Program-made: the position numbers and the translations under genes
NCBI GenBank assembly: GCA_964461715.1
Contig: CAYWVR010000002.1
Span: 76,453 to 140,452 of the forward strand
DNA: 64,000 bases
Source of the DNA: an uncultured Anaerolineales bacterium
GTDB taxonomy: Bacteria; Planctomycetota; Phycisphaerae; FEN-1346
Direction: 5' to 3'
Shown here: piece after piece, positions 11,805-29,645 of the stretch
How the letters are laid out: each line of letters starts with the position of its first letter
Numbering within the stretch: the first letter of the stretch is position 1
Notes under the pieces: model-generated
Databases searched by the model: none
What the model was told of the DNA's origin: nothing
What the model saw: only the letters and a program-made list of their open reading frames with translations

Positions 11805-12731
11805 ATGGAGATCGTCAACGCCCACGTCCATCTCATCGAGCTGGACCGGATGATGGAACGGGGCCGGGGGTTCGCCCTGCCCTCGGGCATCGCCGTCTTC
11901 GAGGAATACCGCGAAAGCCTGCATCTGCTCTCGGAAGACGAGCTTCTGCGGCAGATGGACGAGGCGGGGATCGACCGCTCGATCCTCTTCGCCGTCGACG
12001 CCCCCATCGTCTACGCCTCGAACGAGTACGTTCACGCGGTCTGCCGGCGCCATCCCGACCGACTCCTGGGCTTCGCCTCCGTCCGGCCTCAGGCCCCCGA
12101 CGCGGTCGAGACGTTCGAGCGGGCGATCCAGGGCTTGGGGATGCGGGGCCTGAAGCTCCACCCCCCGCTCCAGGACTTCTACCCGAACGACGAGGCCGTT
12201 TATCCGCTCTACGAGAAGGCTGTGGCCCTGGACGTGCCCGTGGTGTTCCATGTGGGCACGACGCCGTTCGGCAGCCTCTGTCGCCTGGACCAGGCCAATC
12301 CGCTCCTGCTGGACGAGGTGGCGGTGGCATTTCCCGAGATGCGGATTCTGCTTACGCACCTCGGGACGCTGTGGCACCAGGTGGCCCTGATGGTCGTCGA
12401 AAAGAACCCGAACGTGTTTATCGACACGGCGGCGTACCTGTACGAGATCCGCGAGATCATGACGCCCGAGACGGTCGCTCGCGTCGGCGCGGACCGCTTC
12501 ATTTTCGGGACCGATTACCCGACGCCCTACGTCGGCCAGGTGCACCGCCTGGCGGACTTCGTCGACACCGTACGCGGGCTTCCCCTTCCCGCCGAAACGA
12601 TCGAGGCGATCCTCGGTCGCAACGTCGAGCTGCTCCTTAACGGCCGCCCCGACCGCGGACCGGGCATGAGCGCCGAGACCGTGATCGAGGAAGCCGCCCG
12701 TTACATCCGCCGCGAACCCGAAACGACGTAA
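11805..12731 (+). CDS. Amidohydrolase_2 family metal-dependent hydrolase/decarboxylase (TIM barrel)
   Basis: The start MEIVNAHVHL… (metal-binding HxH), followed by …LLGFASV…GLKLHP…VVFHVG…LLTHLG…FGTDYP, fits the Amidohydrolase_2 (ACMSD-like) architecture. Confidence 0.7.
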   Translation: MEIVNAHVHLIELDRMMERGRGFALPSGIAVFEEYRESLHLLSEDELLRQMDEAGIDRSILFAVDAPIVYASNEYVHAVCRRHPDRLLGFASVRPQAPDAVETFERAIQGLGMRGLKLHPPLQDFYPNDEAVYPLYEKAVALDVPVVFHVGTTPFGSLCRLDQANPLLLDEVAVAFPEMRILLTHLGTLWHQVALMVVEKNPNVFIDTAAYLYEIREIMTPETVARVGADRFIFGTDYPTPYVGQVHRLADFVDTVRGLPLPAETIEAILGRNVELLLNGRPDRGPGMSAETVIEEAARYIRREPETT

Positions 12732-12741
12732 GGACGGCCCC

Positions 12742-14139
12742 ATGATGCCGGCCGAGACGCCCGACCCGGAGACACAGGCCGCCAACGCCGTGGTGGCCGA
12801 GGGTGCCGAGCGATTCCTGGAGGCCTTCCGCCGGACGGTCCGCGAGGTCCCGGCCTACCGGGCCATCCTGGACGCCGAGAACCTAAACCCCGGCCAGGTC
12901 AGGGGGCCGGAGGACCTGACGCGGCTGCCCCTGCTGGACAAGCAACGGGTCTTCGGCGAACACCGGCTGGCGGACCTTTGCGTCGGGGGGACACTCGCCG
13001 ATGCCGCGCTGGTCTACTCGAGCAGCGGGCACTCCGGCACGTTCTCGTTCGGCGTCGAGAGCCGCGAGGATCTGGCACGCGGGGCGGCGGGTCTGGAAAT
13101 GCACCTCGACGCCCTCTTTGGAGCCCTGGAGAGGCCGACGCTCCTGGTCAACTGCCTTCCGATGGGCGTCCGCATCCCCACGCGGACGCTCCCGGTGGCC
13201 GAGACGAGCGTCCGGACCGACGCCATCGTTGCCGTCCTGAGGGCCTTGAGGCATGAGTTCGACCAGTTCATCCTCATCGGCGAGCACCTCCTCCAGAAGA
13301 AGGTCGTCGACGAGGGCGCCGACGCGGACCCGGGGTGGGAGGACCTGTGCGTCCACGTCGTGACGGGGGCGGAGTTCATCTCCGAGAGTTGGCGGGGGTA
13401 CATGGCGGCCCGGCTGGGCGTCGACGGCGCCGACCCGCGGCAGGGGATGGTCGGCATCAACATGGGCCTCTCGGAGCTCTCGGTCAGCATCTTCCGCGAT
13501 ACGCCGCGACTGGCCCGCCTGCGCCGCCGCGCCGACGAAGACCCGGACCTACGCCGCGAGATCTTCGGATCGGAGGCCCGCGTCACGCCCGAGATCCTCC
13601 AGTACGACCCCCGCCACACGTGGCTCGAAACGGTCCCGGACAAGGCGGGGCGGCCGGAGCTGGTCGTCTCGACCCTGGACCCCGAGCGCACGTTGCCGCT
13701 GCTTCGGTACCGGACGGGCGATCACGTAGCCCTGCGGCCCTACGCGGACCTGCGGGAGATCCTGGAGCGGACGGGCAACGCCGACCTTCTCCCGCCGCAC
13801 CCCCTGCCCGTGGGGCTTATCTATGGGCGGAACCCCGGCCTCGATCTGCCCGGCGGGGGGCGGGTGACCGTCGCGGACGTCAAGGACGTCCTCTATCGCG
13901 ACCATGAGGCCGCGCGCGACTGGACCGGCCTCTTCCACCTGACGCCTGCCGAGGACGGCATGGGGGCAGTCGAGATCGAGGCCCGCGAGGGCCATCCGCC
14001 GTCGGCGCGCGCAGCCGAAGCCCTCGAAGACCGTCTGGCGGCCTTGGTCGGGGAGCGCGTGCCCGTCGCCGTTCGGCCCTACGGCCGGTTCCAGTACGGC
14101 TGGGGCTTCAATTACGAAAGAAAGCCGTCGTACGTCTGA
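12742..14139 (+). CDS. PaaK/CapK-like adenylate-forming enzyme (phenylacetate-CoA ligase / F390-synthetase family)
   Basis: The N-terminal …AYRAILD…GPEDLTRLPLLDKQ… is a PaaK-type N-domain, and the C-terminal adenylation hinge motif RYRTGD is present. Length is 465 aa. Confidence 0.75.
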   Translation: MMPAETPDPETQAANAVVAEGAERFLEAFRRTVREVPAYRAILDAENLNPGQVRGPEDLTRLPLLDKQRVFGEHRLADLCVGGTLADAALVYSSSGHSGTFSFGVESREDLARGAAGLEMHLDALFGALERPTLLVNCLPMGVRIPTRTLPVAETSVRTDAIVAVLRALRHEFDQFILIGEHLLQKKVVDEGADADPGWEDLCVHVVTGAEFISESWRGYMAARLGVDGADPRQGMVGINMGLSELSVSIFRDTPRLARLRRRADEDPDLRREIFGSEARVTPEILQYDPRHTWLETVPDKAGRPELVVSTLDPERTLPLLRYRTGDHVALRPYADLREILERTGNADLLPPHPLPVGLIYGRNPGLDLPGGGRVTVADVKDVLYRDHEAARDWTGLFHLTPAEDGMGAVEIEAREGHPPSARAAEALEDRLAALVGERVPVAVRPYGRFQYGWGFNYERKPSYV

Positions 14140-14165: not shown

Positions 14166-14999
14166 ATGGCCGACGTGCAAGCGAGCTGGGACCCGGCCTA
14201 CGCCGGGATGGTCGAGCGCAACATCGGGCTTCTCAAGCCCGAGGAACAGGAACGCCTGCGGACGGCCCGCTGTGCGGTGTTCGGGACGGGAGGGCTCGGA
14301 GGGGTGGCCTTCGAGGTCCTCGTACGGAGCGGAGTGGGCCACTTCAACATCGTCGACAAGGACGCCTTCGACGCCTCCAACCTGAACCGCCAGATCCACG
14401 CCACTCGCAAGACGATCGGCCACGTCAAGGTCCAGGCCGCCCGCGAGCGAGCCCTCGAGATCAACCCCACCGTCGAGGTCGCCACCTGGGAGCGCGTCGA
14501 CGGGGAGACCGTCCGGGAGATCCTCCGCGGGGCCGACGTCGCCGTCCAGGCCATCGATACGCTGCGGGCGTCGCTCGTCCTGTCGCGGGCGGCCCGCGAG
14601 ATGGGCGTCCCGTTCGTCGAGGGATGGGCCATCCCCTTCCCGAATTGCCGCACCTTCACCGCCGAGACGCCGAGCCTCGAGGAAGCCTACGGTCTGCCGA
14701 CGGCGGATCGGGCCGTCTCGGACATCCCGGACGAGGAGATCCGGAAGCTCCAGACGAACCTCCTGTTCGGACTCGGGCAGATCGAAGGGGTGGGGGACTT
14801 CTACGATCAGGCCACGATCGACCGGATCGCCGCGGGACACCTCTCCTCGTTCGCCCCCATGGTCTGGGGCACGGCCGTGATGGTGGCCACCGAGGCCCTG
14901 AAGGTGCTGCTCGGCTGGGGTACGCTCGCCCTCGCTCCGCGCTTCGCGGTCTACGACCCGTACGAGCACCGGATGCCCGGGATCCTGCCCGCTCCTTAG
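14166..14999 (+). CDS. ThiF/MoeB/HesA-family E1-like nucleotidyltransferase (TcdA/CsdL-like small form)
   Basis: Rossmann GxGxxG (VFGTGGLGGVAFEVL) followed by IVDKDAFDASNLNRQIHA… No C-terminal CxxC zinc motif or rhodanese domain. From memory it resembles the TcdA subgroup. Confidence 0.7.
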   Translation: MADVQASWDPAYAGMVERNIGLLKPEEQERLRTARCAVFGTGGLGGVAFEVLVRSGVGHFNIVDKDAFDASNLNRQIHATRKTIGHVKVQAARERALEINPTVEVATWERVDGETVREILRGADVAVQAIDTLRASLVLSRAAREMGVPFVEGWAIPFPNCRTFTAETPSLEEAYGLPTADRAVSDIPDEEIRKLQTNLLFGLGQIEGVGDFYDQATIDRIAAGHLSSFAPMVWGTAVMVATEALKVLLGWGTLALAPRFAVYDPYEHRMPGILPAP

Positions 15000-15013
15000 G
15001 CCTTAGGACGCCG

Positions 15014-15895
15014 CTAGGCGGGCGAGATCTCGGTGGTATCGCCTCGGCAGACGGCCCGGAAGAGCGTCCCGCCCCATCGTTCCCGCAGCGCCGTCCGCTC
15101 GCGGTCCGTGAGCCGCGCGAGCAAGTCCAGGCGACCCGCCACCAGCTCTCGCAGGCGCATCGGGTCGCCGAAGGTGCGGCGGTTCATGATCTGCCAGAAA
15201 CGGGCGTAATCGACGTAGGGGTTGGCCTCCAGGAGCCACGAGACCAGGAACGCGCGCCGACCGAGCCGCCGATCGGCCTCGCGAGCCCGGTCGGCCAGGC
15301 AGGAGAGGCTGAGGCGCCGTCCCGTGGGCCGGTCGCCCCACGGCTCGAAAAGGACCACGGCGTCGAAGACCGTCCCGCCGCAGCCGCAGAAGAGGTCGTC
15401 GGCCCCGCCCGCAGCGGCGACGGCCGCGGCCGCCCGCGCCAGCTCCGCCCAGACGGGGAAGGCCGCATCAGGGGCCGCGCATCCGACCATCTCGGCCGCC
15501 TGCCGGCCCATGGAACGCAGGCACGCGAGAGCCCGGCCGAAGGGAGCGTCGCCCGGAAGACCGAACGTCACCGAGTCCCGCACCACGGCCAGGGCGGCGA
15601 CGGGCCGGTCGCCGATCTCGGCCATGAGGACGGCCGTCTCCTCCTGTGCCATGCGCACCGCCGACAGCGGGACGCCGCCGACCGTCTCCCAGCCCTTCGG
15701 GGGCGCGAGCAACAGCCGTCCCGCCGACGTCAGGTCCTCGGGGGTCACGGCCCGCCTGACGCGGAACCGTGTCGTGTCGTCTCCGCTAAGCCACGCGCGC
15801 CCGATCCTCGGGCTGCGTGCCAGATGTTCCATGCCGATCGGGATCATCGGAGGCCTCCATCGGTCCTTAGGCCGTCGGCGGCGATTCCGCGGCAC
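15014..15895 (-). CDS. FeeM/LuxI-like GNAT-fold N-acyltransferase paralogue A (full length; possible real start at MEHL, 15832)
   Basis: Shares the N-terminal block (…TRFRVRRAVTPEDL…AALAVV…) and the C-terminal ~50-aa block (…DPMRLRELVAGRLDLLARLTDRERTALRERWGGTLFRAV…) with paralogues B and C. The track start is GTG. Confidence 0.55.
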   Translation of the reverse strand: MPRNRRRRPKDRWRPPMIPIGMEHLARSPRIGRAWLSGDDTTRFRVRRAVTPEDLTSAGRLLLAPPKGWETVGGVPLSAVRMAQEETAVLMAEIGDRPVAALAVVRDSVTFGLPGDAPFGRALACLRSMGRQAAEMVGCAAPDAAFPVWAELARAAAAVAAAGGADDLFCGCGGTVFDAVVLFEPWGDRPTGRRLSLSCLADRAREADRRLGRRAFLVSWLLEANPYVDYARFWQIMNRRTFGDPMRLRELVAGRLDLLARLTDRERTALRERWGGTLFRAVCRGDTTEISPA

Positions 15896-16232
15896 ACATC
15901 ACTTGCGCGAACGTCGCGGGACCCCAGAAGGCCCGCAGCCAGTCGCGCTCTTGGCTCGTGGCACGGCCCAGGAGGCCGCTTTGCTCGATGAAGAGGCGCG
16001 CGAGAGCCCTCGGATCGTCGAAGAGATCGCCCGCCCGTTCGTTCCATTCGGCCACGGCAATGAAGGTGGCCATGTCGGGCGAGGCCTCGTCGACGCCAAG
16101 GACGGCCGCGCCCGCGGTCGTCTCGGCCACCAGATGGTGGGCCTCGCTCAGCTCATCGACGGTGAGGGCCCGGCGGATGGTTGTGCCGCGGGTGTCGGCA
16201 CCGAAGAGGCCGAGGCGCGTCAGGAGGGCCAT
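15867..16232 (-). CDS. FeeM/LuxI-like N-acyltransferase paralogue B: internally deleted mini-copy (~122 aa from MALLTRLGLF…), keeping only the N-terminal and C-terminal blocks
   Basis: MALLTRLGLFGADTRGTTIRRALTVDEL…MATFIAVAEW joins directly to …LFDDPRALARLFIEQSGLL…ERDWLRAFWGPATFAQV. The catalytic GNAT core present in paralogue C is missing. Possible longer starts exist at 16316 or 16472. Confidence 0.4.
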   Translation of the reverse strand: MALLTRLGLFGADTRGTTIRRALTVDELSEAHHLVAETTAGAAVLGVDEASPDMATFIAVAEWNERAGDLFDDPRALARLFIEQSGLLGRATSQERDWLRAFWGPATFAQVMCAAESPPTA

Positions 16233-16473
16233 CCGCCGCTCGACGCCTCCGGCGCGCGGCCGGCGCCGCGCGCGGCGGGACCGGGCGAGGTCCCGCTCCA
16301 GGGCCAGAAGGTCCATCCAGGAGGGTCGGGCGACGGACTGTGGGGGACGGGCCGCGGGAGAAAAGCCGGAGGGCGCCTGCCCTCGCGGGTCGGTCCCCAG
16401 CGGTCCCATCCGAATCCCCACGTCCTGTCCTTTCGGCGGTTGCGAGCGCGGCGGGCGGCGGGCCGAAGGCATC

Positions 16474-17382
16474 CTAGCACACCGGCACGGCCTGGCCCAC
16501 GTCCCCGGTCACGGCGGCAAAGGTCGCGTCACCCCAGGCCCCGCGGATGGCCTCGCGCTCGGGGCGCGTGCATCCGGGGATCAGGCCGCTGTCCTCGACG
16601 AAGAGCCGCCGGAGGGCCGACTGGTCGTCGAACAGCGTCCGGGCCTCGGCGTCCCACGCCTTGACCTGCTTGCGGTAGGGGTTGCTGACGAGGCAGCGAA
16701 TCTTGATGAAGAGGGTCGCGCTGTCGCTGTCGTCGTTGGCCTGCTCGGCCCGGGCGATCAACTCGGCGACGTTGACCCGCATCACGACCACCGGATCGTC
16801 GGTCTTGCGGGAGTAGCTGCGCACGTCGCTGACCTGCGTGAAGCCCAGGAGGTTGAAGAACCGGGCGTGGCCGGGGCTGACGGTAGTGATGAGTTCGTCG
16901 CATCCGACGGCCAGGCCGTGGGCGAACATGCACCGCATCAGCTCCGTGGGCACGGCGCTCTTGCGGTACTCGGGGGCAATGGCCTGGTTGGTGGCCTCGC
17001 AGACCCGCCGCCTGCCGACCCGAAGCTCGTCCAGCACGTCCTGGAACGCGTCGTCCGAGGGCAGCCCGAGATGCGGCCCGTCGACGGCCAGTCCCTGGAC
17101 GCCCACGACCTTTCCGTCGGCCACAGCGATGAAGGTGGCCATGGACGGCAGGGCCTCGAAGGGACGCATGCGGAGTCCGGTCGCCGTCGGCTGGATGTAG
17201 CCCTGCTCGGCGAACGCGTCGTGGACGAGCCGATAGCCCTGGATAAGGTCATCGTCGGTGACGGCTCGGCGGATGACGGCGCCGCGGGTGTCAGACCCGA
17301 ACAGACCGGCCCGCCTCAGCAGCGCCATCCGGCGCGAGGCCCGGGCCGATTCCGCGTCCCCCCTCCCCTTGTGGACCTTCAT
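16474..17382 (-). CDS. FeeM/LuxI-like GNAT-fold N-acyltransferase paralogue C (N-acyl amino acid synthase-like)
   Basis: Core …YRLVHDAFAEQGY…MATFIAVADGKVVGVQGLAV…RVCEATNQAIAPEYRKSAVPTELMRCMFAHGLAVGCDELITTVSPGHARFFNLLGF… matches the autoinducer-synthase/FeeM acyltransferase fold. A strong SD (AGGAGGGAG) lies 6 nt before the ATG at 17382. Confidence 0.6.
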   Translation of the reverse strand: MKVHKGRGDAESARASRRMALLRRAGLFGSDTRGAVIRRAVTDDDLIQGYRLVHDAFAEQGYIQPTATGLRMRPFEALPSMATFIAVADGKVVGVQGLAVDGPHLGLPSDDAFQDVLDELRVGRRRVCEATNQAIAPEYRKSAVPTELMRCMFAHGLAVGCDELITTVSPGHARFFNLLGFTQVSDVRSYSRKTDDPVVVMRVNVAELIARAEQANDDSDSATLFIKIRCLVSNPYRKQVKAWDAEARTLFDDQSALRRLFVEDSGLIPGCTRPEREAIRGAWGDATFAAVTGDVGQAVPVC

Positions 17383-18346
17383 AGCTTCTCCCTCCTACAG
17401 ATGACGAACGCCTTTCCCCTTGTTCCCATCCTGCCTACTTCCCCAGTTTGCCCCAATTTACCACCCTGTCAAATTTCACACCGGATGCGTAAACCAGAGA
17501 TGCGACGGAAGATCGTAAAACGTTTTTTGACAAGGACTTACAGAGAGATGTGACGCGGGGCCGCTTTTTCGGCCGGCACCGTCGGCTGCGCAACACCGTC
17601 GATTTTCGCCGGGTTTCTTCGCCCAGAGGCATCGCATCTGTCCGGGAAGTCGACCTCCGAAAGTGCTTCGGAAGGCCCGACTTCTCCGCCCCAGACCTGC
17701 CGCCGACCCGCTCGGCGTGAAGCGAGTCCGGCCGCCGTGCCGCTCACCCCCGACGTCGGGGGCGAACGCGTAGCCGCATGGGGGCGAAGATCAGCGGACA
17801 GAGAGACCCGGCTTGCGCCGAATCCTTGAGGGAGGGAAATGCTGTCAGTCTGGTCGTCTTGCGGTAGCGCCCAATCCAGCCGTTGTCCTTCTGCTATCCG
17901 CCTCGACGAGTGGAGTATGGCACGGAGCCGTGCTCTATCAGAAAGATTCCCCTCTTCCCGGTCCCCTCTATCCCCGCTACAGCCCTGCACCTACGTCACG
18001 GCCCGCCCGACCGGGCATCGGTTCAGGTCGTCACTCACGTCTGATAACTGCGATCCGCATGCCAACTCCCGGCAGAATTCCGATCTGTTTGATCCGGCCG
18101 TAAGCGCTTGTCTAAAAAGCACTTAGAACAAGAGTCCACGGTTTCGGGCCGTTCCCCCGGAGGCCGACCCGCCGCCGACCGTTGCCCCAGAGCAACGAAC
18201 TCGCTCGCGAAAGCGTTCTTCTTGGGACGTTAACCCTTGCGAACAAAGGACTTAAGGCCCGTTCCTCCGCATGCAACATGAGTTTCAACGCCGCAACAGA
18301 GAGGGCCGTGAACGCGAGGCACCCGCGATCCGGAGGGCCTGGAACG

Positions 18347-28577: not shown

Positions 28578-29645
28578 GTGGGACCCGCAACCGACATGGA
28601 TTGCCGCACCGTCAACGTCAGACCGGCCGCCGAGGCCGATACCGAGGCGTGGGATGCCTTTATCCAGGCCCGGCCGGACGCCACGGTCTTCCACCGCCGC
28701 GCCTGGTCCGACGCCGTCGCCGACGCCTACGGCCACCGGCCGCGCCATCTCGCGGCCTGGTCCGAGCAGCGCCTCGTCGGCCTGCTGCCGCTGATGGAGG
28801 TCCGGAGCCTTTTGGTGGGGCGAGTGCTCGTCTCGGTGCCATACGCGACGTACGGCGGCATCGTGGCCGAGGACGACAACGTCACGGCCGCCCTGGCCGA
28901 GGGGGCCTGCGCCTTGGCCCGCGATCGCGGGACCCGGTACCTGGAGCTTCGACATCGCGAGGCGCGACCGCTGGACCTGCCGACCATCGACCGCTACGAC
29001 ACGTTCCGCAAGGCCCTGCCCGAGCGGGCCGAGGACGTGCTCCCGGGCCTGCCGCGCAAGACGCGCACCGCCGTCCGCCGCAGCCTCAAGGCCCTGGGCG
29101 AGAAGGCCGTCGAGACGGGGCCGCATCTGCTGGACGTCGTCTACGACCTGTACGCGTTCACGATGCGGCGGCTGGGATCGCCGAACTACCGCCGGCGGTT
29201 CTTCCACGCCTTGGCCGACCGCTACGGCGACGACTGCGTCGCGCTGGTCGTGTGGGACGGGGCGACACCCGTGGCGGGCGTGATCAGTTTCATCTTTCGC
29301 GACGAGATCGTGCCGTACTTCTCCGGCAGCCTGCCCGAGGGCCAGGCGACCCGGGCGAACAACCTGATGTACAGTCGACTGATGGAGATCGCGGTCGAGC
29401 GCGGGCTGCGGGCCTTCGACTTTAACCGCACCCGCCGCGATAACCGCGGACCCTACGACTTCAAGCGTCACCACGGTTTCGAGCCGTCGCCGCTGGCGTA
29501 CCACGTGTATCGGACCGACGGCGGCCCGCTTCCGAACCTGAGTCCGAGCAACCGGAAGTTCGCGCTGGCCGCCCGCCTCTGGCAGCGTCTGCCCCTGTGC
29601 GTGACGCGGCCGGCGGGCGCCTGTGTGACAAAGTGGATCCCCTGA
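28578..29645 (+). CDS. FemAB-family (GNAT-fold) protein, PEP-CTERM-locus type
   Basis: Size and colinearity with FemAB-like acyl/aminoacyl-transferases (…VFHRRAWSDAVADAYGHRP…LLPLMEV…GGI…; second lobe …LYAFTMRRLGSPNYRRRFFHALADRYGD…). Confidence 0.6.
   Translation: MGPATDMDCRTVNVRPAAEADTEAWDAFIQARPDATVFHRRAWSDAVADAYGHRPRHLAAWSEQRLVGLLPLMEVRSLLVGRVLVSVPYATYGGIVAEDDNVTAALAEGACALARDRGTRYLELRHREARPLDLPTIDRYDTFRKALPERAEDVLPGLPRKTRTAVRRSLKALGEKAVETGPHLLDVVYDLYAFTMRRLGSPNYRRRFFHALADRYGDDCVALVVWDGATPVAGVISFIFRDEIVPYFSGSLPEGQATRANNLMYSRLMEIAVERGLRAFDFNRTRRDNRGPYDFKRHHGFEPSPLAYHVYRTDGGPLPNLSPSNRKFALAARLWQRLPLCVTRPAGACVTKWIP

Follow-up and report, generated by a model that had tools for sequence, protein, structure and literature searches.

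Gene clusters built around FeeM-type N-acyl amino acid synthases (NAS) are the closest described relatives of the locus studied here. In Mycobacterium tuberculosis, the NAS TyzA, together with the ThiF protein TyzB and with TyzC, makes acyl-oxazolones (PMC10404671). In the planctomycete Stieleria maiorica, the stieleriacine cluster comprises four NAS paralogues, a ThiF/TcdA-like enzyme and a PEP-CTERM gene, with exopolysaccharide (EPS) genes nearby (PMC7293339), and a passage of that report cites the linkage between NAS and PEP-CTERM as known. We examined a 64,000-nucleotide (nt) stretch of DNA from an uncultured bacterium of the Phycisphaerae (GenBank assembly GCA_964461715.1, contig CAYWVR010000002.1, positions 76,453 to 140,452), hereafter called the window, in which three tandem open reading frames (ORFs) occupy 15014-17382 of the minus strand in the order C-B-A. 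Our subject is the middle one, the mini-paralogue B, which keeps only an N-terminal and a C-terminal block of a NAS. The explanation that we place first, with our judgement evenly poised, treats B as what is left of a canonical NAS paralogue, a recent and non-functional or vestigial remnant confined to this lineage.

As a whole, the locus is a known kind of system, namely a PEP-CTERM/exopolysaccharide-linked NAS cluster. As with FeeM-type NAS genes in general, PEP-CTERM and exopolysaccharide genes are present at the locus, and B derives from such a gene. However, FeeM itself (188 amino acids, aa) lacks the N-terminal helix and the ~90-aa C-terminal helical domain of the subfamily found here, whereas B has lost the FeeM fold. 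Compared with TyzA/TyzB/TyzC and OxzAB (PMC10404671), the ThiF gene of the window showed no nitroreductase-type desaturase next to it, with a PaaK-like ligase and an amidohydrolase present instead, and a truncated NAS copy is reported in neither of those systems. The stieleriacine cluster, likened here by its description, shares with this locus several NAS paralogues (four there, three here) and a planctomycete-type host; its four NAS genes are all considered putative enzymes with different substrate spectra, and the description of the cluster reports no domain-deleted copy (PMC7293339).

Domain architecture of B and its breakpoints

Paralogue C (16474..17382, minus strand; 302 aa) is a canonical FeeM-type NAS and represents the parent type of B. 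It matches Pfam PF21926 (FeeM) at E 3e-36 and consists of an N-terminal helix (residues 7-24), a GNAT core (36-204) and a C-terminal helical domain (205-292). Paralogue A (15014..15847, minus strand; 277 aa from ATG 15847) is a divergent full-length copy with a weak FeeM match (E 9e-7, 29.2 bits against a cutoff of 27). Between them, the portion of B with a coding signature covers 15867..16316 on the same strand, with 149 codons from ATG 16316 or 121 from ATG 16232. B ends at the stop codon TAA (15869-15867) and matches none of the Pfam and NCBIfam models, FeeM included.

A six-frame scan with hidden Markov models (HMMs) of the N-block, core and C-block, made from 41 family members, revealed how B is built. 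The N-block matches at 16050-16241 (55 bits, E 5e-15) and the C-block at 15891-16046 (60.3 bits, E 1e-16), in the same frame and with a single codon between them, while the core HMM has no match in B. The frame is open from 16472 to 15870, without a stop codon or frameshift, and both blocks align within it. The initial annotation had described B as a natural domain deletion consisting of N and C blocks only, without the acyltransferase core but with an intact reading frame and a high third-position G/C content, and each of these points is borne out. It had also proposed aligning B with A and C to map the breakpoints. In the three-way alignment, B matches the first ~70 conserved and the last ~55 residues of C and nothing between. 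The in-frame alignment pairs B with C residues ~17-89 and 243-295, so that the deletion comprises C residues 90-242. With these 153 residues, nearly the entire GNAT core is gone, from beta3 through beta6 and including the helices that bind the acyl donor, as is the first half of the C-terminal helical domain with its NPY motif and first helices.

The retained parts are preserved to different degrees. The first part of the N-block (N1; RRMALLTRLGLFGADTRGTTIRRALTVDELSEAHHLV, 16128..16241, minus strand) runs from the end of the N-terminal helix through beta1 into the start of alpha1 and is still well conserved; the family motif RRMALLxRxGLFGxDTxGxxIxRA appears in B as RRMALLTRLGLFGADTRGTTIRRA, with 12 of its 14 conserved columns kept. 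It is followed by a degenerate segment (AETTAGAAVLGVD, 16089..16127, minus strand) that replaces C residues 54-75, the end of alpha1 and alpha2, with a net in-frame loss of 9 codons (27 nt); here, the near-invariant residues H54, F57, R71 and R73 (C numbering) are substituted or deleted. The conserved beta2 strand (EASPDMATFIAVAE, 16047..16088, minus strand) then leads to the junction of the core deletion, at codon GAA 16049-16047, and includes a 26-nt patch that matches C at 24 positions. Beyond the junction, the C-block (WNERAGDLFDDPRALARLFIEQSGLLGRATSQERDWLRAFWGPATFAQVMCA, 15891..16046, minus strand) spans C residues 243-294, the final four to five helices of the C-terminal helical domain, and retains the pattern W..(7)..F.D...L...LF ... 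WG, with 9 of 10 conserved columns kept. All recognisable indels of B are in frame.

Examined for a complete GNAT alpha/beta core (beta1-beta6/7 with the alpha3/alpha4 acyl-donor site), B proves to lack one. In the AlphaFold2 (AF2) model of B (pLDDT 79, pTM 0.46), the C-block is predicted as a confident helical bundle (pLDDT 93-96), while the N part is of low confidence and its retained beta1 and beta2 strands would have no sheet to join. Since it has neither the acyl-donor site nor the central sheet, B cannot be an acyltransferase and is catalytically dead.

Distribution of the blocks across the subfamily

Contrary to the idea that the terminal blocks are peculiar to these paralogues, the N-core-C architecture, in one polypeptide of ~300-320 aa, was found in 161 of the 171 family proteins retrieved, which come from Planctomycetota, Verrucomicrobiota, Gemmatimonadota and other metagenome-assembled genomes (MAGs). 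B is the only N-C protein among them. Nor is the N-block a terminal module apart from the core, as had been supposed, since it comprises the N-terminal helix together with GNAT beta1, alpha1, alpha2 (a short helix) and beta2. FeeM lacks the C-terminal helical domain (residues 205-292), whose last four to five helices make up the C-block.

Searches for a second mini-copy returned none. A word-indexed search of 5.8 billion protein clusters yielded only B itself and one full-length protein. Among the 55 matches to B obtained with phmmer against 1.84 billion representatives, all except B and the N-only fragments P0166 and P0171 were at least 291 aa long and matched in two separate stretches, with no mini-copy among them. 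Metagenome contigs scanned at the DNA level with peptides of B, the junction peptide IAVAEWNE among them, gave nothing. A scan of genome contigs with C alone also found nothing, and an alignment-based scan recovered the family loci. Block scans of 129 related loci (45 genome, 5 closest-homologue and 79 metagenome loci) identified many tandem pairs, one triple and fused tandems, but no other copy with only N and C blocks. B is therefore unique to this population, within the bound set by the nearest genome outside it, at ~67% protein identity. The closest syntenic loci carry either two full-length copies (L006, L007 and L055) or one (L051-L054), and the pair in L006 is followed, as in the window, by the ThiF, PaaK-like and amidohydrolase genes. 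Conservation of the mini-gene in relatives, to which the initial annotation had looked for confirmation, did not materialise: within present databases, the canonical copies are conserved and the mini-copy is missing, an outcome that the same annotation had named as counting against its reading.

Several candidates that resembled B were rejected. The short N+C matches in six loci (L058, L059, L060, L065, L081 and L086) consist of a C-block followed by the N-block of the next tandem copy, and the apparent double C-blocks in L072 and L073 are overlapping-frame matches within one copy. P0166, encoded in L098, carries the N-block only, followed by unrelated sequence. In this locus (474-1160), a canonical NAS breaks off after the N-block (…GYIPPQPTGL), either because the copy is disrupted or because the contig is chimeric; truncated members of the family therefore occur elsewhere, with an architecture different from that of B. 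The triple locus L072 (629-3050) contains three tandem NAS copies, of which the middle one is strongly divergent yet full length (N 17, core 57 and C 28 bits), a layout that parallels C-B-A without the deletion. Two metagenomic proteins, P0125 (585 aa) and P0136 (608 aa), represent fusions of two tandem NAS copies (N-core-C-N-core-C), which suggests that tandem paralogues act together physically. Regarding the identity of the C-block, a carrier protein was dismissed, as the xSGLL stretch has no conserved Ser, and so was a ubiquitin-like protein, as none of A, B and C ends in Gly-Gly.

Origin and evolutionary rates of B

On the shared blocks, B is nearest to C (53% amino-acid identity), and the proportion of synonymous differences (pS) between the two, 0.41, is the lowest of all pairs (others 0.46-0.73), which points to a derivative of the canonical type and not to a copy of the divergent A type. 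By this comparison of sequences, B would have been either duplicated within the lineage or homogenised with C.

Overall, the constraint on B appears relaxed, although unevenly by segment. With pS partly saturated, the ratio of non-synonymous to synonymous differences (pN/pS) between B and C is 0.78, against 0.4-0.6 in bona fide pairs, and in Tajima-type counts B carries 20-25 unique changes and C 4-12. In N1, pN/pS is 0.49 (pN 0.22, pS 0.44), identity to eight outgroups is 0.57 for B and 0.70 for C, and the acceleration is moderate (6-9 changes unique to B, 1-5 to C). In N2, which covers the end of alpha1, alpha2 and beta2, B retains just 5 of 11 conserved columns, pN/pS is ~1.4, identity to the outgroups is 0.41 for B against 0.68 for C, and unique changes reach 9:0. 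Depending on the outgroup, relative-rate counts place the acceleration of the GNAT remnants of B over C at 3-6 fold. For the C-block, pN/pS is 0.77, but B and C are almost equally distant from the outgroups (identity 0.40 and 0.42), with unique changes (B:C) of 7:5, 4:6, 2:5 and 6:5. Taken at face value, these sequence comparisons suggest that the catalytic remnant lost constraint and the C-block did not. However, the C-block evolves fast even in bona fide genes (~42% identity between orthologues), so the relative-rate test has little power, and its conservation in B may be inherited from a full-length past.

We also simulated the neutral evolution of C's blocks at 0.2-0.4 substitutions per site. 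A stop codon was gained in 64-79% of replicates, and a C-block score of at least 60.3 bits was retained in 0-1.8% (p <= 0.02). The N-block score of 55 bits, on the other hand, is compatible with neutrality at 0.2-0.3 substitutions per site.

The divergent copy A offers a second example of degeneration within the family. It keeps 34 of 66 near-invariant columns and lacks the RRMALL helix and the CE.TN, TELMRC and VSPGH motifs, while retaining the C-terminal signature (NPY, W, F.D and WG). A word-based search for homologues of A returned only A itself; a tblastn search found the second copy of L008 (10978-11826), which has the same losses, keeps 38 of 66 columns and is 37% identical to A. A-type proteins are probably non-canonical or pseudoenzyme paralogues, and at least two genomes have conserved this type beside a canonical copy. 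Together, the retention of the C-terminal helical domain in C, B and the A-type copies hints at a role for this domain that is separate from catalysis.

Coding signal, translation signals and transcription

Between 15870 and 16232, the G/C content at third codon positions (GC3) of B is 0.85, against 0.55 at second positions, and the coding-type GC3 signal extends to ~16330. The initial annotation had placed B at 15867-16232; its stop holds, but its start is doubtful. ATG 16232, contained in the B ORF, corresponds to the conserved Met/Leu within the family motif RRMALL, B has VERR just upstream of it, and full-length members carry 17-50 further residues upstream of RRMALLxRxGLFG in the family alignment. 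Because this is an internal conserved Met and the GC3 signal continues upstream, a 5' boundary at 16232 is probably too short. Gene callers start B at ATG 16409 (180 aa), and the maximal ORF begins at ATG 16472 (201 aa), 1 nt after the stop of C. The stretch at 16317..16473 (minus strand) is either the C-B spacer or a doubtful 5' extension of B: its frame is open, but sliding windows give G/C contents of ~0.75-0.80, 0.55-0.80 and 0.70-0.80 at codon positions 1, 2 and 3, which is not a coding pattern. The true start of B is ambiguous.

Translation signals do not settle the start. C, A and the ThiF, PaaK-like and amidohydrolase genes all have a strong Shine-Dalgarno (SD) sequence 7-8 nt before their start codons, whereas B offers only GGGGA, 5 nt upstream of ATG 16409, and GGAGG, 13 nt upstream of ATG 16232, neither of them at a workable spacing. 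Openness of the frame carries little information either. The G/C content of the region is ~70%, and long spurious ORFs are frequent; since these are typical of such DNA, neither an intact ORF nor its length is by itself evidence of a gene. For instance, a 531-aa ORF runs antisense to B and C (15958-17553, plus strand), and ORFs of 100-600 aa are numerous in all frames. The significant evidence for B is its in-frame homology and not the openness of its ORF.

The B stop lies 19 nt before the ATG of A, and this gap contains the SD of A (GGAGG, 15854-15858). The C-B spacer has a G/C content of 72-79%, and the only AT-rich, promoter-like intergenic stretch (48-62% GC) is upstream of C, in the ~960 nt between an SDR gene and the start of C (17383-18346). 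From this arrangement, C-B-A probably forms one operon, with 17383-18346 probably serving as its promoter or leader. In L001 and L052, the NAS gene likewise follows a long gap of ~600-970 nt. The promoter scan showed no sigma-70-like site, and an Rfam scan of 14900-18400 gave only chance-level matches to eukaryotic families.

Vestigial remnant or functional mini-protein

If B is a vestigial remnant, it would have arisen by tandem duplication of the canonical NAS type closest to C, and an in-frame deletion would then have stripped it of the whole catalytic part of the GNAT fold. Inside the C-B-A operon, expression of A would always entail passenger transcription of B, which would have no present function of its own. 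Its open frame and well-kept C-block would reflect selection from the time when B was a full-length gene, and selection against polar effects on downstream A may add to the open frame. A deletion that only recently affected a formerly functional full-length paralogue would account equally well for most of the signs of constraint. With 3 of 24 conserved columns lost in N1 and the C-block, ~0.06 substitutions per site of neutral change after the deletion would fit. Since full-length A-type copies with a degenerate N2 exist, the decay of N2 need not post-date the deletion. Like an ordinary bacterial pseudogene, B has lost an essential domain, has no orthologues and shows a raised non-synonymous rate and no clear ribosome-binding site; unlike one, it carries neither a frameshift nor a stop, and its C-block is conserved as in intact genes. 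The disrupted NAS copy in L098 offers a precedent within the family, and the orphaned beta1 and beta2 strands in the model of B also agree with a remnant. Several further observations weigh against one. Both the core deletion and the net loss of 27 nt preserve the frame, for which the chance probability is ~1/3 to 1/9. No stop interrupts the 121-149 codons of B, although 64-79% of neutral simulations gain one, and only 0-1.8% of them match its C-block score. Beside a decayed GNAT fragment, the C-block still has 9 of 10 conserved columns and has evolved at a rate no higher than in C, which suggests that constraint on catalysis was lost earlier than constraint on the C-block. In addition, the degenerate A and the second copy of L008 keep the C-terminal domain, which may thus act independently of catalysis. 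These observations favour a functional, non-catalytic mini-protein similar to a microProtein, acting via its C-terminal helical module and N-terminal helix, which we consider credible but somewhat doubtful. Such a protein would bind a partner of the full-length enzymes (a NAS subunit, the ThiF cyclase or the PaaK-like ligase) and modulate or scaffold N-acyl amino acid production. The in-frame indels, the open ORF with its GC3 of 0.85, the retention of 21 of 24 conserved columns in N1 and the C-block against 5 of 11 in N2, and the confidently predicted helical bundle are all consistent with it, and the fused tandems P0125 and P0136, along with FeeM-like and ThiF fusions (PRK14852), suggest physical contact. 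Nevertheless, no orthologue was found in any collection searched, so long-term maintenance cannot be shown; a strong SD is absent and the start ambiguous; the N part is poorly predicted, with its strands orphaned; and the fast evolution of the C-block leaves the rate test little power, while a recent deletion would give the same conservation. Tentatively, B could be a translated bacterial microProtein that docks on C, A or the ThiF/PaaK-like partners and tunes the production of N-acyl amino acids or acyl-oxazolones. MicroProteins and dominant-negative paralogues, such as plant LITTLE ZIPPER and animal Id proteins, are small and derived from a larger paralogue; these examples are conserved across species, and their binding to full-length relatives has been demonstrated. 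B would resemble them in that a putative interaction module is kept and the functional (here, catalytic) domain is lost, but it differs in being a singleton known here from sequence alone. The suggestion of the initial annotation that B is a functional small partner rather than a pseudogene thus meets evidence on both sides, whereas its description of the domain deletion stands.

Two other explanations assign no role to the protein, and we regard both as improbable. B might be kept open only as a translated spacer that protects downstream A, through Rho-dependent polarity or translational coupling, with the ORF and not the protein under selection. The short gap containing the SD of A, the lack of an AT-rich promoter-like region between C and A, and the in-frame nature of all deletions agree with this idea, which we nonetheless find quite unlikely: selection on a spacer would not account for the specific conserved residues that the C-block retains, A shows no obvious dependence on coupling, having a strong SD of its own, and, without a good initiation site, ribosome coverage of B itself is doubtful. 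More improbable still is an assembly artefact, by collapse or chimerism between tandem paralogous repeats, an origin that metagenome-assembled contigs with tandem paralogues might suggest, as might the presence, immediately 5' of the junction, of the 26-nt patch that almost equals C. The junction is identical in three independent Logan assemblies, from three sequencing runs, and in the NCBI contig; B is the same across four or five independent contigs, and these sequences are 99.85-99.97% identical to the window over 3-21 kb. The recurrence of one structure in independent assemblies argues that B is not an artefact. Furthermore, the flanks of B are only 62-68% identical to C at the DNA level, with a longest exact shared run of 15 nt, too short for k-mer collapse. 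Across the three Logan assemblies, which differ from the window by 0.03-0.15%, there are no single-nucleotide polymorphisms within B; such near-identity means that population variation provides no information on selection.

The significance of B differs between the two leading explanations. As a mere remnant, it would be an ordinary snapshot of paralogue decay in a tandem array, and a warning that the 180-aa "hypothetical protein" in this MAG is no enzyme. If functional, it would represent a rare bacterial truncated paralogue acting as a non-catalytic regulator and a natural dissection of the family, in which the C-terminal helical domain matters independently of catalysis; as a microProtein, it would identify the C-terminal domain of the subfamily as a protein-protein interaction module. 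This uncharacterised domain is present in hundreds of planctomycete and verrucomicrobial NAS proteins. In either case, the locus draws attention to a conserved cassette of NAS and PaaK-like ligase, in some loci with ThiF and amidohydrolase, beside PEP-CTERM/EPS genes. The NAS/PaaK-like(/ThiF/amidohydrolase) cassette seems biochemically uncharacterised.

Gene neighbourhood

The NAS genes are arranged tail-to-tail with three genes on the plus strand. The nearest encodes a ThiF/MoeB-family adenylyltransferase (14166..14999; Pfam ThiF, E 1e-42), convergent with A and with the 3' ends 15 nt apart. It is followed by a PaaK-like adenylate-forming enzyme (12742..14139), recognised by weak PaaK NCBIfam matches, and an Amidohydrolase_2 protein (11805..12731; Pfam E 2.5e-39). 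The PaaK-like gene is the most constant neighbour of the NAS subfamily, adjoining NAS in 29 of the 45 genome loci, while PEP-CTERM homologues lie near NAS in ~20 of them, and ThiF and amidohydrolase co-occur with the PaaK-like gene in four (L006, L009, L019 and L041). The NCBIfam model PRK14852 (989 positions), a FeeM-like and ThiF fusion, matches C and the ThiF protein of the window over the respective parts. By analogy with the described systems, the ThiF protein is a probable ATP-dependent activator or cyclase of the N-acyl amino acid; most likely, C would N-acylate an amino acid and ThiF would then activate the carboxylate of the product with ATP. The NCBIfam model for exosortase-associated acyltransferases has no match to the subfamily at E <= 0.1.

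Farther out, an SDR gene, a hybrid histidine kinase and Poly_export, Wzz-like, Bac_transf and GT2 genes are found nearby. Downstream of the NAS locus, a FemAB-like/Acetyltransf_6 protein (28578-29645, plus strand) is encoded inside the exopolysaccharide export cluster (Poly_export, Wzz-like and ParA-like ATPase). A 407-aa PEP-CTERM protein is encoded at 19368..20591 on the minus strand (TIGR02595, 20.5 bits against a cutoff of 16), and its ORF overlaps by 4 nt a Peptidase_C39_2 gene on the same strand (20588-21496). The C39-like peptidase carries a PEP-CTERM motif of its own (residues 250-274), and such a tail on a peptidase of this kind is unusual.

Lastly, a terminator-like hairpin (GAGGGC-AGGC-GCCCTC, followed by CGGCTTTTCT) occurs at 16369..16384 on the minus strand, in the C-B spacer and within the 180-aa gene call for B. 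Sites with a hairpin and T-tract number 2 in the region against 1.7 in shuffled sequences, which is no excess, and it is possible that this hairpin attenuates or terminates transcription after C.

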